A stretch of DNA of 16,144 nucleotides from a virus, in UHGV virus genome UHGV-0251712; one strand, written 5' to 3'. The translations under genes were made by a program, and so were the position numbers. Positions within the stretch are counted from its first letter, which is position 1, and each line of letters opens with the position of its first letter. This document shows positions 3,206 to 16,144 of the stretch, one piece after another. A model generated the notes under the pieces. It saw only the letters and a list, made by a program, of their open reading frames with translations. It ran no database searches and was not told the DNA's origin.

Positions 3206-4204
3206 ATGTCTGATATTCGACAAAATAGAATAGAGTTAAATGAAGTGCATATAGCTCGCTCCATGGCTATATTTCTAGTTGTTTTACTTCATTCTTCAGG
3301 TGCTTTTTTTATGCAGTTTGGAGATCATTGGTGGATTGTTAATTTATACAGTTCTTTTTCAAGGCAGTGTATAGGTCTTTTTTTTCTTATCACTGGATAC
3401 CTATTTTATGAAAAAAACATAAACCCAACAGCACACCTAAAAAAAGGAGTGTCGAGATTGATAATACCATTCATATTTTGGTGGGTGGTATATTATATCT
3501 ACAATACAGAGATTAACAACAAATCATATAATTCTATATTTCAACCAAGTGAGGTACACCTTTGGTTTATGTATGCATATATTTGTATATATATGTTTTT
3601 ACCAATAATTTGCAACTCATTAAAACACATACCAACATATTACATTTTAATTATTGTAAGCATGCTTTTTTACTCAAATTCCATTGTCCCTGTAGTTGAT
3701 AAAACGATAATGAAGGTAACATGGTTTGATGTAAAACTAGTGTCTGAAAATGGGATATATATTCTTATTGGGGCAATAATAAGGAGATATAACGATAAAA
3801 TAAAAAAATGCAATGCAGTGATACCATTGGTGATTATTGTTATGTCGTGCCTGTTAACATCAATGGCATCTAGTTGGTGGTCTGAAATAACAGGCAGGCC
3901 TGAGCAGTTTTTCTTTAAAAATACATCTCCACTTGTATTAATATGTGTTATTTCTTCATTTACATTATGCATGTCATACTCAAAAATAATTAGCAAAAGA
4001 TTAATGAATTTATTTACATCAATATCAAATGTTTCATTTGGTATATACTTCGTCCATTTCTTTTTTGTTAGAGAAATTAGACTCGGGTATAATCAAGAAA
4101 ACGCATATTTCATGATACCATTGCTAACAATCATTTATTTTTTAATGTCATATTGCATATCAATAATTCTAAGCAAGATCCCTTTGCTTAGAAAAGTAAT
4201 ATAA
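3206..4204 (+). CDS. Acyltransferase family 3 integral membrane protein, probable phage-encoded O-antigen O-acetyltransferase (Oac-like)
   Basis: 332 aa, highly hydrophobic with many predicted transmembrane segments. N-terminal pattern R-x-E-L-N...A-R-S-M-A-I-F-L-V-V-L-L-H resembles the acyltransferase-3 signature. Strongly AT-rich relative to neighbours. Convergent with and abutting the tailspike gene, as in Sf6-like phages. Confidence 0.7.
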   Translation: MSDIRQNRIELNEVHIARSMAIFLVVLLHSSGAFFMQFGDHWWIVNLYSSFSRQCIGLFFLITGYLFYEKNINPTAHLKKGVSRLIIPFIFWWVVYYIYNTEINNKSYNSIFQPSEVHLWFMYAYICIYMFLPIICNSLKHIPTYYILIIVSMLFYSNSIVPVVDKTIMKVTWFDVKLVSENGIYILIGAIIRRYNDKIKKCNAVIPLVIIVMSCLLTSMASSWWSEITGRPEQFFFKNTSPLVLICVISSFTLCMSYSKIISKRLMNLFTSISNVSFGIYFVHFFFVREIRLGYNQENAYFMIPLLTIIYFLMSYCISIILSKIPLLRKVI

Positions 4205-9316: not shown

Positions 9317-10648
9317 TTACTGCCCCAAAGATGGAAGATATCCGTAGCGATTAATGAAGTCGATTGACAGCTCGGGGTGCTGCTTCAGGTAATCTATAGA
9401 AGCCTGAGGCGCTTCCACTCGCTTGATACCGTTTTGCTGAACGTACTTACCAACCGCCTCATTACGCTTCTGGTTGAGCGTGTTCAGGATGACGCCAGCG
9501 TTGCGACGAAAGGACTCCTCGCTCTGCGAGTTCTGCAGCGAACCAACAGCCTGGTCGAGCTTTTTGCCCTCGGCATCAGAAAGTGCGCCCATGCCTCGCA
9601 TGGCCTGAACCGCTGTCAGGTATGCTTGGGATTTAAAGGTATCAAGTCGTGCCTGAGTGTCTGCAGCCTGTGAGCCTGGAACGTTGGGGATTACTCCACG
9701 TAAGCCTGTAATGCTCTTAAGTGAAGGAGAACTAACGATATCGTTCAGAGTGAACATGCTGGTTGTGAGGGTGTTGATGCCGTCTTTGTAGCCATCATTT
9801 AGCGCTTGCTGCTTCTGCTGCAACTGCTGGTTGTTGGCTGCTATGCGGCTCTGTATTTCCTGGCGCTTCAGGTCGTTAGTTTCTGCTGATAGCATCCGGT
9901 CAAGGCGCTTATTTTCGTTGTTAATGCGGTTTGTTTCTGCGTCCAGATTAATGCGCTGCTGACCTAAATTCGCCTGGATATCTTGCCCGCGCATTGTGAT
10001 TGCCTGATTCCGAGCGGCGGTTTGCGAATCCAGATCCTGACCGCGCATGGTAACCTGGCGACCCTGCATTTTATCCTGTAGGTCAAAGTATTTTTCGGGT
10101 CCGAGACTGTTCATCCCCAGGTGATCGACAAATTCGCCGAACTGCCGCGGGTTCTGTTGGTACATCTGAGCGACATCCTGAGGATTAACGCCAACACGAG
10201 CTAACTCACCGGCGTTGTTTTGCAGCCATGATTGCATTGCTTCTGGAGACGATGACGCAAGGCGTGCGCCAGCCGCTAAGGTGCCGATAGAATTACGCTG
10301 ATCTTCATCAATGAATCCCATGCCTTTACGAACGGATTCAATCTGTTCTGGATATTGAGTAGCCAACTGACGCAAAGCACCGCGATCACCAGACGCATAA
10401 GCATTAGCGTATGCCTGCTGAAATTCTTTCTGCCGCTGAGCCTGCTTTTCCTGCTGAAACACCCCCGCAATACCTGAAAGGCCTTGCAAAGCAGTCAGCC
10501 CAACATTGTTAGCGCCTGAACGCTCAATATCATTGTTCTGCCTGATAAGCTGAAGCGTATTGCCGATGTCATTTACGCTCGGAGCGTTTGAGTTGACGCC
10601 GCCGATACCAGCCAACAATCCGCCGTTTGTTCCTTGCCAAGTAGCCAT
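9317..10648 (-). CDS. Phage ejection/DNA-transfer protein (P22 gene 20-like)
   Basis: 443 aa, Q/N/A-rich low-complexity with coiled-coil character; in operon with and immediately upstream of the 797-aa protein; size and context fit P22-like gp20. Family assignment is by context only. Confidence 0.55.
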   Translation of the reverse strand: MATWQGTNGGLLAGIGGVNSNAPSVNDIGNTLQLIRQNNDIERSGANNVGLTALQGLSGIAGVFQQEKQAQRQKEFQQAYANAYASGDRGALRQLATQYPEQIESVRKGMGFIDEDQRNSIGTLAAGARLASSSPEAMQSWLQNNAGELARVGVNPQDVAQMYQQNPRQFGEFVDHLGMNSLGPEKYFDLQDKMQGRQVTMRGQDLDSQTAARNQAITMRGQDIQANLGQQRINLDAETNRINNENKRLDRMLSAETNDLKRQEIQSRIAANNQQLQQKQQALNDGYKDGINTLTTSMFTLNDIVSSPSLKSITGLRGVIPNVPGSQAADTQARLDTFKSQAYLTAVQAMRGMGALSDAEGKKLDQAVGSLQNSQSEESFRRNAGVILNTLNQKRNEAVGKYVQQNGIKRVEAPQASIDYLKQHPELSIDFINRYGYLPSLGQ

Positions 10649-10657
10649 GATTACCCC

Positions 10658-10855
10658 TTAAAACAACGAGCCAAGCAATCCGATACCAGCACCAATGCCA
10701 GCGCCCCAAGGCGTTGATGTTCCCAAAAGGCTGGCAAGACCTGCACCGGCAATCGCACCAGACGTGCCACCGCTAATTGCAGTCTGAAGACTTGATGGTT
10801 TAACCAAAGAGTAGTTGGCTTTGGGGTGACGTGAAGTGCAGCTGCACGACGGCAA
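10658..10855 (-). CDS. Small Gly/Ala-rich ORF, possibly the 3' remnant of an upstream ejection-protein gene (gene 7-like) truncated by a deletion joint
   Basis: 65-aa ORF ending 9 bp before the 443-aa gene. Hydrophobic Gly/Ala-rich C-terminus. Begins at a TTG inside the region occupied on the other strand by the ssb fragment, so its 5' end is unlikely to be native. Confidence 0.3.
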
Positions 10856-11267
10856 CCTGACAATAGCAACGTCAGAACAATGGCGAGATAAAAATACTGG
10901 CGAGCAAAAGGAATTGACTGAATGGCATCGTGTTGCTGTATCCGGGAAACTGGCTGAGGTCGTGGGGCAGTATGTGAAAAAAGGTGATCAGATTTATTTC
11001 GAGGGAATGCTGAGAACCAGAAAGTGGAAAGACCAGTCAGGGCAAGACCGTTACACAACCGAGGTTCATGTCGGAATTAATGGCGTGATGCAAATGCTTG
11101 GCGGCATTGGCGACAGCAAACAACAAGCAGCCAGCAGGCAATCACAGAAGCCACAGCAGCAATCATCACCAGCACAACACAACGAACCTCCGATGGATTT
11201 TGACGACGATATACCCTTTGCACCAGTAACTCTCCCCTTCCCTCGTCACGCTATTCACGCAATTTAA
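10830..11267 (+). pseudogene. ssb: Single-stranded DNA-binding protein gene (ssb), 5'-truncated and with a C-terminal extension beyond the DDDIPF tip
   Basis: Translation [22 protein letters not shown]...[54 protein letters not shown]...[10 protein letters not shown] aligns with E. coli SSB from about residue 30 onward. The N-terminal ~30 residues are absent (in-frame stop at 10827-10829). After DDDIPF there is no stop and the frame continues 15 codons. Confidence 0.75.
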
Positions 11268-12052: not shown

Positions 12053-12742
12053 ATGAGCAAGATTGCCTATCAGGCACTGCGTGAAAAGGCAGAGAAAGCA
12101 ACGTGTGGTGTGTGGTCGCTCGAATATGGAGAGGGCCGATTTGATGGTGATGATGCGCTAATTCATCGTGAAGTTGCTGGATATATTCCCATTTGCAGAA
12201 TTGAAGGAGCGCATCCTGAAAGCGGTTTCGATGAAGATTTCCAAATGGAACAGCAGGCCAATGCTGAATTCATCGCAGCAGCCAGTCCAGCTACCGTGCT
12301 GGCACTACTGGATGAACGGGAAAGAAACCAGCAGTACATCAAACGCCGCGACCAGGAGAACGAAGATATTGCGCTAACGGTAGGGAAGCTGCGTGTTGAT
12401 CTGGAAGCCGCAGAGAAGCGCAACGCAAAATTACAAAGCGAGAATGCATACATCCGCAACAGGTACAAAGAACTGGACCTATTAATCGGGAAAAACATTC
12501 TGGTCATGCAGGCTGCCATTATCGAATGGCAATCTACTGGCGACGCTAAAAGCGGACTGGCATGGATTTATAACACACTGTTTGGCCCAGGCGAATTGCC
12601 GGACGAATCTGAGAAAGATGCTCAGGCCTACTTTAATCGCAAAAATGAACCGATTGACGAAAAGCTTATGGAGCTTCACAAGTGGTTTTGGGAACAAAGT
12701 GAAGCCGAGCGTGTCGCTGGCATTCGCATCAAAGGAGAGTGA
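12053..12742 (+). CDS. Ead/Ea22-like family protein (lambdoid early-left accessory protein)
   Basis: 229 aa with a central coiled-coil-like segment; N-terminus MSKIAYQALREKAEK... resembles proteins annotated Ead/Ea22-like in enterobacterial prophages (recollection, not searched); position in the early-left region. Confidence 0.5.
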   Translation: MSKIAYQALREKAEKATCGVWSLEYGEGRFDGDDALIHREVAGYIPICRIEGAHPESGFDEDFQMEQQANAEFIAAASPATVLALLDERERNQQYIKRRDQENEDIALTVGKLRVDLEAAEKRNAKLQSENAYIRNRYKELDLLIGKNILVMQAAIIEWQSTGDAKSGLAWIYNTLFGPGELPDESEKDAQAYFNRKNEPIDEKLMELHKWFWEQSEAERVAGIRIKGE

Positions 12743-13398: not shown

Positions 13399-13433
13399 CC
13401 ATTTTTGATGTAAAAACATCCTTCTCTGAGGGC

Positions 13434-13462
13434 TTGCTCCTCAATAAGTTTGGTTTTATAAT
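13434..13462 (+). promoter_or_regulatory. Candidate sigma70 promoter for the NYN gene (TTGCTC - 17 bp - TATAAT)
   Basis: Perfect -10 hexamer TATAAT at 13457-13462 with TTGCTC 17 bp upstream, in the 149-bp gap before the NYN ORF. Sequence-only prediction. Confidence 0.3.
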
Positions 13463-13547
13463 TACGCGCAATGAAGGTGGGCGGTTCGCTACTATACAAG
13501 AGGGGTGTACCCCGCGAACTTAACCCACCACCACTTTCCTCTCTACT

Positions 13548-14195
13548 ATGAATTGCAAATCAATGACCAGAAAATATGCCATCATGATCGATGCTGGTTT
13601 TTTGCGTGCAAAATTAGGCACAAAAGATAAGCCAATCGATGCGGAAGTAATCAAAGTATTTGTAGAAAAACTAACAAAAAGGCATGAACTAGAAGGCATG
13701 ATTTTGCACCGTGTTTATTATTACGATGCAGAGCCGCTTACCGGAATACAGACGCATCCGATTAGTGGAGAGAAAATTGACTTCTCTGAAACAGAAGTTT
13801 CTAAAAGAAATAAAGCCATGCTTGATGAGTTGAAAAGAACTCCTTTTTTTGCAGTAAGACTTGGAGAGACAAACTTTCGAGGATGGAAGGTTGACCCATG
13901 GGCATTAAAGAGCAGTGACTCTAAAACTTCTTCCATTAATGCCTACAATGTTAAGCCTAATGTTCAGCAGAAAGGCGTTGATATGCGTATTGCGTTAGAT
14001 ATGTCATCAATGTCATTAAAAAAACAGGCAGATATATATGCTTTGGTGACTGGTGATTCAGATTTTGTTCCAATTATAAAATTTGCTAGGAAAGAAGGCC
14101 GACAGATTTTTCTATACACACTGGGACATAGTGTCAAGCAGACGATGTATGAACATTCCGATTTGTTAGTGCCAGATACCATGGATAAATTGTGA
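13548..14195 (+). CDS. NYN-domain (PIN-like, LabA/limkain-b1-type) predicted ribonuclease
   Basis: 215 aa with NYN hallmarks: N-terminal YAIMIDAGF, central KGVDMRIALDM, and C-terminal ALVTGDSDFVPIIKFARKEGRQIF (the typical GDxDF...G block). AT-rich relative to flanking phage genes. True start may be the ATG at 13563. Confidence 0.65.
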   Translation: MNCKSMTRKYAIMIDAGFLRAKLGTKDKPIDAEVIKVFVEKLTKRHELEGMILHRVYYYDAEPLTGIQTHPISGEKIDFSETEVSKRNKAMLDELKRTPFFAVRLGETNFRGWKVDPWALKSSDSKTSSINAYNVKPNVQQKGVDMRIALDMSSMSLKKQADIYALVTGDSDFVPIIKFARKEGRQIFLYTLGHSVKQTMYEHSDLLVPDTMDKL

Positions 14196-14374
14196 TTGGA
14201 GCTAGGAATAGGTTAGCCGCGCCTTAATAGATGATCCATTCTGGCAGAAAAAGAACACAAAGAAGTAGCCTAAGTGCCCCCAACTGCATTTACACCCAGG
14301 CCCTCATTGCGGGTCTTTCTATTTACAGAGATGGCTGAGCAGAACGCCAAGAACTGACAACCTGAACGAATACG

Positions 14375-14400
14375 AACCCGCCTAGTGCGGGTTTTCTTTT
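14375..14400 (+). terminator. Rho-independent terminator (stem aacccgc/gcgggtt plus T-run)
   Basis: 7-bp GC-rich stem with 5-nt loop followed by TTCTTTT. Confidence 0.65.
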
Positions 14401-14406
14401 ATCTGA

Positions 14407-14430
14407 ACTCGCTACGGCGAGTTTTGTTTT
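14407..14430 (+). terminator. Second tandem rho-independent terminator (stem actcgc/gcgagt plus T-run)
   Basis: 6-bp stem with 4-nt loop followed by TTTTGTTTT. Confidence 0.55.
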
Positions 14431-14442
14431 ATGGAGATGATT

Positions 14443-14742
14443 ATGGCCTGTTCAACATTCAACCATTTAACGTTACAGAAATACCAGCCAGACCCTGAAG
14501 ATTTATGCTCACTGTGTGGCGGAAATCATGGTAAAGCCGCCATGATCGAATGTAAGGACAAAATCCACATTTGCCTTAATTGCGTTGATGTCCTCGTTGA
14601 TATCAAAAATGAGAGAGAAGATAAAAAGCGTAGCGAGGCTATTCGCGCATTAGATTCATGGATGCGAGATGGGTATAGTGCTGCGCAAATTTATGACTTC
14701 GCAATATCAAAAGGCGAAATACCAGGAGTGCGCATCGAATAA
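14443..14742 (+). CDS. Small zinc-ribbon protein bounded by terminators
   Basis: CSLCGG...C...CLNC cysteine pattern. Start chosen at the ATG at 14443 because GGAG lies 6 nt upstream; the ORF track starts at 14431, which abuts the terminator T-run. Confidence 0.45.
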   Translation: MACSTFNHLTLQKYQPDPEDLCSLCGGNHGKAAMIECKDKIHICLNCVDVLVDIKNEREDKKRSEAIRALDSWMRDGYSAAQIYDFAISKGEIPGVRIE

Positions 14743-14822: not shown

Positions 14823-14927
14823 GATGACCGATACCAGCCTGATTCCTGAGAAAGAAGTGATGAACAAGCTCGGTGTTTCATCACGTCAGACAATCTGGAA
14901 CTATACCAAACGGCACGGATGGATATA
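14823..14927 (+). pseudogene. AlpA/excisionase-family helix-turn-helix gene, 3'-truncated (34 codons)
   Basis: MTDTSLIPEKEVMNKLGVSSRQTIWNYTKRHG fits the AlpA/Xis-type HTH pattern (L-x-x-x-E-V...G-x-S-R-x-T-I-x). Intact members run about 60-70 aa. Here the frame ends WI-stop inside the 36-bp inverted-repeat copy that starts at 14917. Confidence 0.5.
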
Positions 14928-14952
14928 GGTTACTGGCGAACACATGATTTCA
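14917..14952. repeat. Left copy of perfect 36-bp inverted repeat bracketing the integrase 3' segment
   Basis: ggatggatataggttactggcgaacacatgatttca is exactly the reverse complement of 15154-15189, with mismatches immediately outside both ends. Confidence 0.9.
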
Positions 14953-15140
14953 GAAGAACGCTTGTTACACGTCTGTCCGAGATGAATGTCGAGCCTCATG
15001 TTACTGAGCGAATGCTCGGTCATGAACTTGGCGGGATAATGTCCGTATACAATAAACACGATTGGATAGAGGCTCAGCGCAAAGCGTATGAGCTTCACGC
15101 TGATAAATTGTTCTGGCACATCAGGAGCATTTCTGATTAA
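14919..15140 (+). pseudogene. Detached C-terminal segment of a tyrosine integrase, inverted relative to the rest of the gene
   Basis: MDIGYWRTHDFRRTLVTRLSEMNVEPHVTERMLGHELGGIMSVYNKHDWIEAQRKAYELHADKLFW carries the H-x-x-R and catalytic Tyr region. Its first 11 residues duplicate the last residues of the minus-strand integrase ORF. Confidence 0.8.
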
Positions 15141-15148
15141 CGCCACCG

Positions 15149-16144
15149 TTAAGTGAAATCATGTGTTCGCCAGTAACCTATATCCATCCCTCCCCTTATT
15201 CTATTTACGAATCGGTTGGCTGCAGCGATGCTGATCGGTTTGTTTATGTCTTCTCCAGGGAAAAGAACATCATTGTACGTTGTCATGGCCTTATCGAGGA
15301 AAGGCTTAATTTGTTCGAAGATTGGACGGCGGATAACATTACCCATCTTGCTATGCTCTTTCGGTACGGTCCATACGTTGTCCAGCAGGTCAAATTCTGT
15401 CTTTGTTGCCAGCCTAAGCTCTGAGAGCCTCGCCCCCCACAGCATAAGCATCTGATGAAGGAGCTTATTTGACGTAGACGCACGGCTTCTTTCAATAGCA
15501 AGCCAAATCTTAGCCAGTTCGTGATACGACAGTACCCGATCCCCTACCTCAGCGCGGGAGCCGAAGTCCCTTGGCTGGATGCTCATAATTGCGCAACTAT
15601 CTATCAACTGACGCCGCATGCACCAACTAATTGCTGATCTTAGTTGACTTAGCACCTGCCTTGCTCGGCGTGGATTATCTTTTTCTTCTTCGGTAAGCAG
15701 GTCAACCCATTGCTTAACCGTGATAGAAGATGCCGGACGATTAGGAAAGGCGTCATGCATGCGCTTCATAACCGTTGATCGGTAAAGTGCCTGGGTCTTT
15801 TCTCTGAGAGTTGTAGAGACGTAGTTGTCGAACCAGTAGTCGAGACACTGGGCGACCGTCATGGAGTTCTCCACCTTCTCTTCAAAATAAGTGCGTGGAT
15901 CCGTTCCTGAGAAATAGAGCTTTCGCAAGTCAGCAGTGATCTGTCTGGCATCCTTCAAAGACAGGGATGGGTATCGACCAAGCCCAAGTCGATTAGGCTT
16001 GCCATGCCAGCGATAGCGGTACTGGAACTGGATGACCCCCTTCGGTGAAATTCGTACGCTGAGGCCATCGGCATCAGCCACTTCTTGTGGGCCCGAATAT
16101 GGTTTACCATAAATAGTACGCAGTTTTGTGTCGCTTATAGCCAT
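15149..16144 (-). CDS. P4-type tyrosine integrase, N-terminal 330 codons; truncated before the catalytic Tyr
   Basis: N-terminus has the arm-binding pattern of P4-family integrases (GLSVRISPKGVIQFQYRYRWHGKPNRLGLGRYPSLSLKDAR). ORF ends ...GGMDIGYWRTHDFT-stop at the right copy of the 36-bp repeat. Start codon is the last 3 bases of the window. Confidence 0.8.
   Translation of the reverse strand: MAISDTKLRTIYGKPYSGPQEVADADGLSVRISPKGVIQFQYRYRWHGKPNRLGLGRYPSLSLKDARQITADLRKLYFSGTDPRTYFEEKVENSMTVAQCLDYWFDNYVSTTLREKTQALYRSTVMKRMHDAFPNRPASSITVKQWVDLLTEEEKDNPRRARQVLSQLRSAISWCMRRQLIDSCAIMSIQPRDFGSRAEVGDRVLSYHELAKIWLAIERSRASTSNKLLHQMLMLWGARLSELRLATKTEFDLLDNVWTVPKEHSKMGNVIRRPIFEQIKPFLDKAMTTYNDVLFPGEDINKPISIAAANRFVNRIRGGMDIGYWRTHDFT
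15154..15189. repeat. Right copy of perfect 36-bp inverted repeat
   Basis: Reverse complement identical to 14917-14952. Confidence 0.9.

Follow-up and report, generated by a model that had tools for sequence, protein, structure and literature searches.

A conserved three-helix RNA upstream of an NYN nuclease gene in a mobile prophage cassette: a possible RNA-nuclease module resembling type III toxin-antitoxin systems

The virus genome UHGV-0251712, a stretch of 16,144 nucleotides (nt) referred to here in its full length as the window, carries at about positions 13430-14328 a self-contained, horizontally mobile cassette that sits in a variable prophage cargo slot and combines a structured RNA with the gene of an NYN-domain nuclease. 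The original prediction for this region had described a candidate single-gene defense or abortive-infection module with a structured leader. The leader is structured indeed. It is a conserved RNA partner, under tighter constraint than anything else in the cassette, and for this reason the module is not a single gene. The hairpin is a new and well-supported structured RNA class that stands in no Rfam catalogue. We favor the reading that RNA and gene form a two-component RNA-nuclease module similar to type III toxin-antitoxin (TA) systems, possibly for abortive infection or exclusion, and give it about an even chance of being correct. More tentatively, the pair might be a new class of RNA-protein TA or abortive-infection system, in which an NYN ribonuclease is checked by a single three-helix RNA and which would be spread over several phyla (Proteobacteria, Acidobacteriota, Eisenbacteria, and Gemmatimonadota) and their temperate phages; we consider this broader proposal possible and somewhat doubtful.

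Folding and a covariance model, R1, place the conserved partner or leader RNA at 13470-13535 on the plus strand, with a hairpin of 54 nt at 13476-13529. Its outer helix P1 joins 13476-13481 with 13524-13529, and the inner helix P2 joins 13483-13489 with 13514-13520. A single-stranded bulge loop, UACUAUACAAGA (13490-13501), follows on the 5' side, and the apical hairpin P3 (13502-13505 with 13510-13513) closes the structure with a UGUA loop. The window hairpin folds with -26.4 kcal/mol (z = -3.39), and none of 200 shuffled sequences was as stable. Among the enterobacterial copies the hairpin is better conserved than the open reading frame (ORF); about 40 leader nucleotides do not vary at all, even in the Morganella copy with its protein of only 66% identity.

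To look beyond these close copies we took 80 loci of distant homologues (36 to 53% protein identity) from Gamma- and Betaproteobacteria, Acidobacteriota, Eisenbacteria, Gemmatimonadota, and one spirochaete. Nearly all of them show the same architecture of P1, P2, bulge, and P3 directly upstream of the NYN gene. The bulge is always on the 5' side and has 10 to 12 nt (for example, UACAAUCCAAG or GACAUAUAACAG), being nearly constant within each RNA class, and P3 is often closed by a UUCG or GAAA tetraloop in the distant loci. An R1 match was accepted when it lay on the strand of the gene, ended 0 to 100 nt before the start codon, and had an E value below 0.01. The window copy scored 52.5 bits (E = 1.8e-12), and the motif was found directly upstream of the NYN gene in 76 of 88 genomic loci, two of the misses having no upstream sequence at all, as well as in every one of the 37 IMG/VR viral contigs that encode a protein with at least 40% identity.

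The helices are supported by covariation. In the covariance-model alignment, 75.7% of the cells in paired columns could pair, compared with 57.9% after shuffling (0 of 500 shuffles reached the observed value) and 41 to 51% when the partners were slid, and the covariation score was 0.438 versus 0.166. A structure-ordered alignment of 61 sequences gave 97.6% paired cells against 62.4% for shuffled and 41 to 50% for slid partners, with compensatory changes in 22 of 24 pairs; these figures lean towards structure, since this N-padded alignment was fitted to each sequence's own fold. Unfitted alignments led to the same helices: plain MAFFT followed by RNAalifold recovered P1, P2, the loop, and P3 from 22 betaproteobacterial-type copies (11 of 18 pairs compensatory), and P2 and P3 from a mixed gammaproteobacterial set (9 of 10 pairs compensatory). 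Unconstrained folding of single sequences gave the common shape in 55 of 71 cases.

The RNA does not correspond to a catalogued element. No Rfam 15 family matched the window at E ≤ 1, and nine distant motif-bearing loci returned only an unrelated tRNA and a chance match. The hairpin was also considered as a tRNA fragment or att-site remnant, which was ruled out because ARAGORN found no tRNA or transfer-messenger RNA in the window. Our literature searches found no description that pairs NYN genes with an RNA motif, an antitoxin, abortive infection, or an anti-phage role. As a separate observation, the heptamer CTACTAT of the RNA loop (13491-13497) recurs at 13543-13549, where it overlaps an upstream ATG at 13548, and the Klebsiella copy has the same repeat. 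The second heptamer might serve as a further recognition site, or the recurrence might be due to chance.

Transcription signals surround the RNA in a regular manner. A TANNNT hexamer most often ends 17 nt before P1: 36 of 67 copies have one within -21 to -14, and 19 of these 36 also carry a TTG at -35 spacing; therefore, the transcript should start only 6 to 10 nt before the hairpin. In the window the predicted start lies at about 13469-13471. The 9 nt preceding P1 are 55% A, typically AUAAAAAAC. After the hairpin, a run of at least four T residues is found in 38 of the 67 copies, so that the hairpin would double there as an intrinsic terminator. Family-wide, the NYN start codon follows about 10 to 60 nt after the hairpin, often without a Shine-Dalgarno sequence.

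The gene downstream is an NYN (LabA-like, PIN-like) nuclease gene of 210 amino acids at 13563-14195 on the plus strand. The ORF extends from 13548 to 14195 (plus strand) and would encode 215 amino acids when begun at the upstream ATG 13548. The true conserved start is probably ATG 13563, 33 nt downstream of the hairpin, because the Klebsiella and Serratia proteins have 210 amino acids and the Serratia and Morganella starts align at this codon; neither ATG is preceded by a Shine-Dalgarno sequence. The Pfam profile PF01936 (NYN) matches the ORF with 45.3 bits (cutoff, 24.2; E = 1.6e-11) in an alignment that covers only residues 129 to 191, and it is present in 120 of 120 homologues among the matches listed. 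PHROG 5783, annotated as of unknown function, matches with E = 1e-53. NCBIfam gave only TIGR00288, below threshold, and a sequence search of the PDB with the protein found no entry.

An AlphaFold2 model built from 61 homologues reached a predicted local distance difference test (pLDDT) score of 92.7 and a predicted template modeling (pTM) score of 0.85. Its best Foldseek neighbors were 2qip (E = 9.6e-7) and the NYN domain of MARF1, 5yaa (E = 1e-4), with target-normalized TM-scores of 0.64 to 0.74, and all significant neighbors were NYN domains. The fold and the active site are conserved: D15, D60, D145, D151, D170, and D172 (215-residue numbering) are invariant across the 61 homologues, down to 44% identity, and so are R55, R104, W113, and K142. 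The protein is a member of the NYN/LabA-like (COG1432) family, as the profile, the PIN-like fold, and the metal-binding acidic residues all agree, and we infer from sequence and model that it is a metal-dependent ribonuclease. A bacterial PF01936 NYN protein acts in vitro as an Mn2+-dependent, sequence-nonspecific endonuclease of single-stranded RNA (Chi & White, bioRxiv 10.1101/2024.04.08.588522); an enzyme of this kind would need restraint. LabA-like NYN proteins have no established bacterial function (PMC5499597).

What the original prediction had observed about this gene was borne out, and its interpretation was supported in part. The motifs IDAGF, KGVDMRIALDM, and GDSDF, which it had read as NYN/PIN-like, contain the invariant D15, D145, D151, D170, and D172; the Pfam match that it had proposed to look for lies well above the cutoff; and the gene is more AT-rich than its surroundings, with a GC content of 0.379 versus 0.486 to 0.497 for the adjoining ea genes (0.47 to 0.50 for the flanks). 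It had recognized no named defense system, and PADLOC-DB 2.0 gave only PDLC01154 "NYN" (E = 2.3e-5) and HEC-09 (E = 2.5e-4), each over about 50 residues. The prediction had also held that a missing profile match, or homologues scattered in housekeeping contexts, would speak against it. The profile match is significant; the distant homologues are scattered, many of them beside housekeeping genes, so that the second objection applies in part.

The family is moderately large. At 50% identity the relatives of the protein give 1,465 cluster representatives with E ≤ 1e-3, of which 84 reach E ≤ 1e-30, and at 90% identity there are 1,995 clusters; the best 150 of the 1,465 representatives mostly have 200 to 250 amino acids. 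The genes beside the distant homologues include housekeeping genes (pgi, purH, miaA, and those for an aminoacyl-tRNA synthetase and malic enzyme) and also some restriction-modification, abortive infection (Abi), TIR, Uma2, TrbL, and barstar genes. All-against-all clustering of the neighbors of 75 loci yielded no conserved second protein, only the NYN cluster itself. A protein antitoxin or second subunit was thereby rejected as a candidate, the next-largest neighbor cluster (6 loci) consisting of antisense ORFs that overlap the NYN gene. Being scattered without synteny and often carried by phages and plasmids, the gene behaves like part of a selfish module of the TA type and not like a housekeeping gene.

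The RNA and the nuclease gene occur together, and the exceptions are informative. When the search was started from the RNA core, 18 of 18 true motifs in viral contigs lay in contigs that also encode the NYN gene. Metagenomes gave 11 true motifs. One of these precedes an intact NYN gene (L178) and one is cut off by the contig end (L183), while three stand beside damaged genes, with a frameshift (L181), an internal deletion (L172), or a stub of 28 amino acids (L179). Others (L173/L176, L177, and L182) are intact RNAs with no NYN gene. In L175/L180, a vapB-vapC pair (VapC being a PIN protein) stands where NYN would normally follow, behind an intact RNA that has both promoter and terminator; this could reflect one PIN-like toxin module replacing another, or a TA hotspot. 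The orphan RNAs score 44 to 64 bits and keep promoter and terminator. In two further loci, L073 and L077, the RNA lies on the strand opposite to NYN and has its own TTGACA-17-TAAATT promoter and a U-tail, and one locus, L067, has two tandem RNA copies. Decay of the nuclease is seen in E. coli as well: one of seven E. coli copies, in strain WP4-S18-ESBL-08 (L184), carries a frame-shifting deletion of 148 bp, corresponding to window 13982-14129, which removes D145 to D172 (the DMRIALD...GDSDF core) and leaves promoter and hairpin 100% intact. RNA thus persists without the protein and the NYN gene decays beside intact RNA, while NYN without RNA is rare. A toxin and its antidote should show just such an asymmetry, although the numbers are small.

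The cassette brings its own transcription signals and stays autonomous of its context. The gap upstream of the ORF measures 149 bp (13399-13547), as originally stated, and contains a -35-like hexamer TTGCTC (13434-13439, plus strand; TTGCTC or TTGCGC in the Klebsiella and Serratia copies) and, after a 17-nt spacer, a -10 hexamer TATAAT (13457-13462, plus strand; TATAAT or TATAGT in all enterobacterial copies). The original prediction had called this a good sigma70-like promoter; the -35 hexamer agrees with the consensus at only three of six positions, and for this reason a consensus promoter scan gave 0 sites around it. The DNA common to different hosts begins at about 13400-13430, just before the -35 hexamer. 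Three terminator-like hairpins lie 3' of the NYN gene in the window. The insert had been credited with a pair of tandem terminators, but this pair (14374-14394 and 14405-14424, both with T-runs, within 14374-14434 on the plus strand) is backbone DNA outside the cassette. The cassette's own terminator-like hairpin with a T-rich tail is at 14298-14325 (plus strand); it shows compensatory changes in the Klebsiella copy and is assigned to the cassette because the alignment puts shared Klebsiella DNA up to about 14328, where the Klebsiella and window sequences part. In the Serratia and Morganella copies the shared DNA ends just past the stop codon, directly followed by different terminators.

Behind the right edge the prophage backbone resumes with a 27-nt remnant (14331-14357, plus strand) of the 3' end of a gene similar to that of DNA polymerase III theta (HolE). 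The same 3' end belongs to the intact theta-like gene that follows the Klebsiella cassette, and 14328-14430 matches about 1,070 E. coli genomes that have no NYN gene, beside "DNA polymerase III subunit theta". The predicted promoter and terminator, the deviant GC content, and the presence/absence polymorphism among related prophages are those of a prophage moron.

Comparison of the copies demonstrates that the cassette is mobile. The phage slots occupied by copies that are 88 to 95% identical differ between E. coli, Klebsiella, and Serratia/Morganella, making three in all. The E. coli prophage KTa005, inserted at ybhC, has ea genes, NYN, and a small ORF followed by xis/int, and the prophage H9Ecoli at sbcB has the same gene order, in line with the predicted position between early genes and integrase. 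A related sbcB prophage has Lar and a 55-amino-acid ORF in the same slot instead of NYN, so that the description as a self-contained insert in a cargo slot stood as well. The Klebsiella copy lies in a nin region beside the intact polymerase III theta-like gene, and the Serratia and Morganella copies are in a siphovirus, between the tail chaperone and tape-measure genes. The gene is rare, being found in 7 of 5,426 complete E. coli genomes.

Remote full-length relatives with 25 to 35% identity are present in 48 Stx2a-converting phages, several lambdoid phages, and phages of Firmicutes. In a plasmid collection there were 169 matches to such relatives, 129 of them on plasmids typed as conjugative, and 136 were Campylobacter records, including pTet. 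In the Stx2a and lambdoid phages the relative follows right after cI, in the rexAB slot. The paralogue of phage ev099 (L089, 3007-3864), for example, lies between cI and N, has 285 amino acids, is 29% identical, and matches Pfam NYN with E = 6.8e-9, and the same paralogue is found in Stx2a-type phages (L090 and L156-L168). A different long hairpin with a T-run precedes it, with apparent compensatory changes between phages. The remote paralogues, including the gene of the rexAB slot, may each have a cognate hairpin RNA of their own. Extending the partner RNA described here to them is unproven: R1 had no match upstream of paralogues at 25 to 35% identity, and of the strong hairpins with T-runs that are visible there, only 4 of 17 scored better than 95% of random windows in an energy-only control, which is not significant.

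What surrounds the cassette is the remnant, about 13.5 kb long, of a defective P22-like prophage that lies between chromosomal dacD (1162-2334) and sbcB. The left part of the window contains, in order, dacD, an O-antigen acyltransferase gene, a tailspike gene with a P22 head-binding domain, and genes of gp16-like and gp20-like injection proteins; the right part contains a truncated ssb, abc2, Ead/Ea22, a dATP/dGTP pyrophosphohydrolase gene, the NYN cassette, a 103-amino-acid ORF, and the integrase gene. The tail-end genes (gp20-like, gp16-like, and tailspike, on the minus strand) abut the truncated ssb and the early-left operon divergently, with the junction at 10648/10836. No genes for immunity, replication, lysis, or the head are present, a loss that implies a large internal deletion or rearrangement. 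The truncated ssb (10836-11267) matches only the C-terminal part of PHROG 44. The integrase gene is broken: relative to E. coli H9Ecoli (L093), a 237-bp piece (14917-15153), coding for the C-terminal 73 amino acids of Int, is inverted onto the plus strand with its residues 99% identical, the N-terminal 331 amino acids are still on the minus strand, and 62 bp were lost and 36 bp duplicated in inverted orientation.

Other cargo is present in the remnant. The 103-amino-acid ORF (14431-14742) belongs to PHROG 3680, of unknown function (E = 6e-69), and has a CxxC...CxxC pattern; it is present in H9Ecoli and absent from the KTa005, Klebsiella, and Serratia copies, and this patchiness marks it as separate cargo outside the NYN unit. 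The O-antigen-type acyltransferase gene (Acyl_transf_3; 3206-4204) has a GC content of 0.29, the window mean being 0.455, and is convergent with the tailspike gene, the classic position of serotype-conversion cargo. Residues 118 to 214 of the Ead/Ea22-like protein (12053-12739) match PADLOC "DpdH" with E = 1.2e-36, probably through a shared domain and not as part of a Dpd system.

According to the reading that we favor, a sigma70-type promoter would start a transcript a few bases before the three-helix hairpin RNA, which is followed by the NYN ribonuclease gene and the cassette's own terminator. The RNA would be the cognate partner of the enzyme, binding it through the conserved loop and keeping it inactive, and/or repressing NYN synthesis; its action would be in cis within the mRNA and, where the hairpin also terminates transcription, in trans in the form of a short RNA. 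On prophages the pair could be an addiction, exclusion, or abortive-infection device: once the RNA is no longer supplied, as when an infecting phage shuts off transcription, the freed nuclease would degrade RNA. The proposal thus presupposes, as inferences, that this protein is an active and toxic RNase, that RNA and protein bind each other, and that there is an anti-phage effect.

Several observations weigh against this reading. The enterobacterial copies, including that of the window, have a C/U-rich tail and no U-run after the hairpin, and therefore a 5' leader may be the only form of the RNA there. The RNA comes in a single copy, whereas ToxIN, CptIN, and TenpIN have a tandem repeat array. 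The divergent cases (2 loci) and the orphan cases (4 distinct loci) are few and come from metagenome assemblies, and the orphan RNAs could be simple remnants of recent gene loss. Ordinary genes make up most of the immediate neighborhood of the distant homologues, and only about 10 of 138 neighbors match defense models, which is no strong defense-island signal. RNAalifold on mixed-class alignments recovered P3 only from the MAFFT alignment and nothing from the covariance-model alignment, because the pairing register of the 3' strand shifts by 1 to 2 nt between classes. Finally, HEC-09, the only NYN defense candidate with a published assay in the literature searched, gave no protection against any phage assayed (bioRxiv 10.1101/2024.01.29.577857).

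The most serious competing explanation is an autoregulatory leader that acts in cis only, the hairpin being an operator in the 5' untranslated region that the nuclease binds or cleaves, with neither an antitoxin role nor toxicity. Housekeeping RNases are known to limit their own mRNA through leader hairpins (rne, rnc, and pnp), so that a conserved hairpin before an RNase gene is a familiar feedback design. The geometry suits it: the NYN transcript opens with the RNA in more than 95% of the loci, the start codon following within about 10 to 60 nt and often without a Shine-Dalgarno sequence, and the window copy fits particularly well, as no terminator separates RNA and ORF. We nevertheless consider it rather unlikely. 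Divergent RNA genes with their own promoter and U-tail cannot act in cis, more than half of the copies would release a short RNA at their terminator-like T-run, and the explanation accounts neither for intact orphan RNAs that keep promoter and terminator nor for the decay of NYN genes beside intact RNAs. A riboswitch or transcription attenuator, in which the hairpin senses a ligand or signal and sets the read-through into the NYN gene, would also make use of a conserved structured 5' element with an unpaired loop and of the T-runs in 38 of 67 copies. The element forms, however, a single uninterrupted hairpin that offers no alternative pairing for an anti-terminator; the enterobacterial copies lack the T-run though their hairpin is invariant; no Rfam riboswitch family matches; and the element is tied to a single protein family and can be divergent or orphan. 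It is the least probable of the alternatives.

The RNA might instead be the substrate, cofactor, or guide of the NYN enzyme in a nontoxic ribonucleoprotein with a function in lysogeny or host takeover, such as the processing or targeting of particular RNAs of host or phage. The co-variation of RNA and protein as a pair across phyla, the conserved single-stranded loop, the trimming of CRISPR RNA by a CRISPR-associated NYN protein, and the remote paralogue in the cI-adjacent rexAB slot of lambdoid phages would all agree with it. Yet the loop, nearly constant within a class, is unlike a variable guide, no conserved target-like sequence lies nearby, and a selfish or toxic module would better explain why the unit is scattered in isolation over chromosomes and why its nuclease gene was inactivated repeatedly, which makes this explanation quite improbable. 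That the cassette is a single-protein defense or abortive-infection gene, with a leader that is only a stabilizing 5' hairpin, is in keeping with its place in a cargo slot, the promoter and terminator of its own, its AT-richness, and its rarity, and with the occurrence of NYN domains in candidate defense models. But a generic stabilizer would not keep a sequence-specific loop or three covarying helices across phyla, nor is it expected to be more conserved than the ORF or to exist as an orphan or divergent gene, and we regard this explanation as very unlikely.

A dedicated partner RNA offers a concrete mechanism for the large LabA-like NYN family, and the pair makes a small system for learning how a structured RNA recognizes and silences an otherwise nonspecific RNase. 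If the RNA is an antitoxin, type III-like systems would extend to the PIN-like nuclease superfamily and to a nonrepetitive RNA design, and a compact module of less than 900 bp would be added to the prophage-borne immunity and addiction genes. Copies occur in prophages of clinical Enterobacterales, and remote paralogues occur in Stx2a-converting phages.

Among known systems, several share single features with the cassette. It resembles prophage morons and exclusion genes such as lambda rexAB and P22 sieB in layout, with its own promoter and terminator, deviant GC content, and variable presence, and the remote paralogues just after cI in ev099 and the Stx2a phages add to the likeness with rexAB; moron describes a layout and not a mechanism, and no exclusion phenotype is known for the NYN gene. 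LabA-like NYN proteins (COG1432; VPA0982, PDB 2qip; MARF1, 5yaa) and the CRISPR-associated NYN RNase of Bacteroides fragilis have in common with our protein the PF01936 domain, the PIN-like fold, and the catalytic aspartates. The identity to the solved NYN structures is about 13%, and the protein here is about 50 to 60 amino acids longer than their domains of 149 to 162 amino acids; unlike the LabA-like proteins, its gene has a dedicated partner RNA and rides on mobile elements. HEC-09 is likewise an NYN-domain protein proposed as an RNase-based defense, but the match to it is weak (50 residues), and HEC-09 has an N-terminal helix-turn-helix-like domain and is embedded in Hma. VapBC type II systems also employ a small metal-dependent RNase toxin of the PIN superfamily and are scattered, mobile, and often borne by phages or plasmids, whereas their antitoxin is a protein encoded upstream; here the 149- to 164-bp upstream gap holds only the RNA and no ORF.

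The closest parallels are systems with RNA partners. The prophage AbiF toxin is neutralized in cis and in trans by a conserved upstream noncoding RNA (bioRxiv 10.1101/2025.04.15.648962). AbiF (Abi_2) with its noncoding RNA RCd22 is, like our cassette, prophage-borne with a conserved nonrepetitive RNA in the 5' region; the AbiF protein is toxic, and its RNA, which was first recognized as an upstream RNA motif, works in two ways, on expression in cis and through direct binding in trans. It differs in that the protein is Abi_2/HEPN-like and not NYN, and in that the abiF RNA is in Rfam while our hairpin is not. Type III TA systems (ToxIN, CptIN, and TenpIN) consist of a promoter, a structured RNA, often a terminator, and then an endoribonuclease gene, a likeness that concerns the layout only. 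They also have no protein antitoxin and are carried on phages, plasmids, and scattered chromosomal sites, and the asymmetry expected of them, an RNA that can exist without the protein and a protein that rarely does without the RNA, is seen here too. In contrast to them, the nuclease here is NYN/PIN-like, with no ToxN, CptN, or TenpN match in Pfam or PADLOC; one hairpin replaces the tandem array of 2 to 6 short repeats, only L067 having two; and the window copy has no terminator between RNA and nuclease gene. By toxin family and by the repeat array, the cassette is not a member of ToxIN, CptIN, TenpIN, or AbiF, and it shares with them the order of a structured RNA followed by its nuclease or toxin gene.

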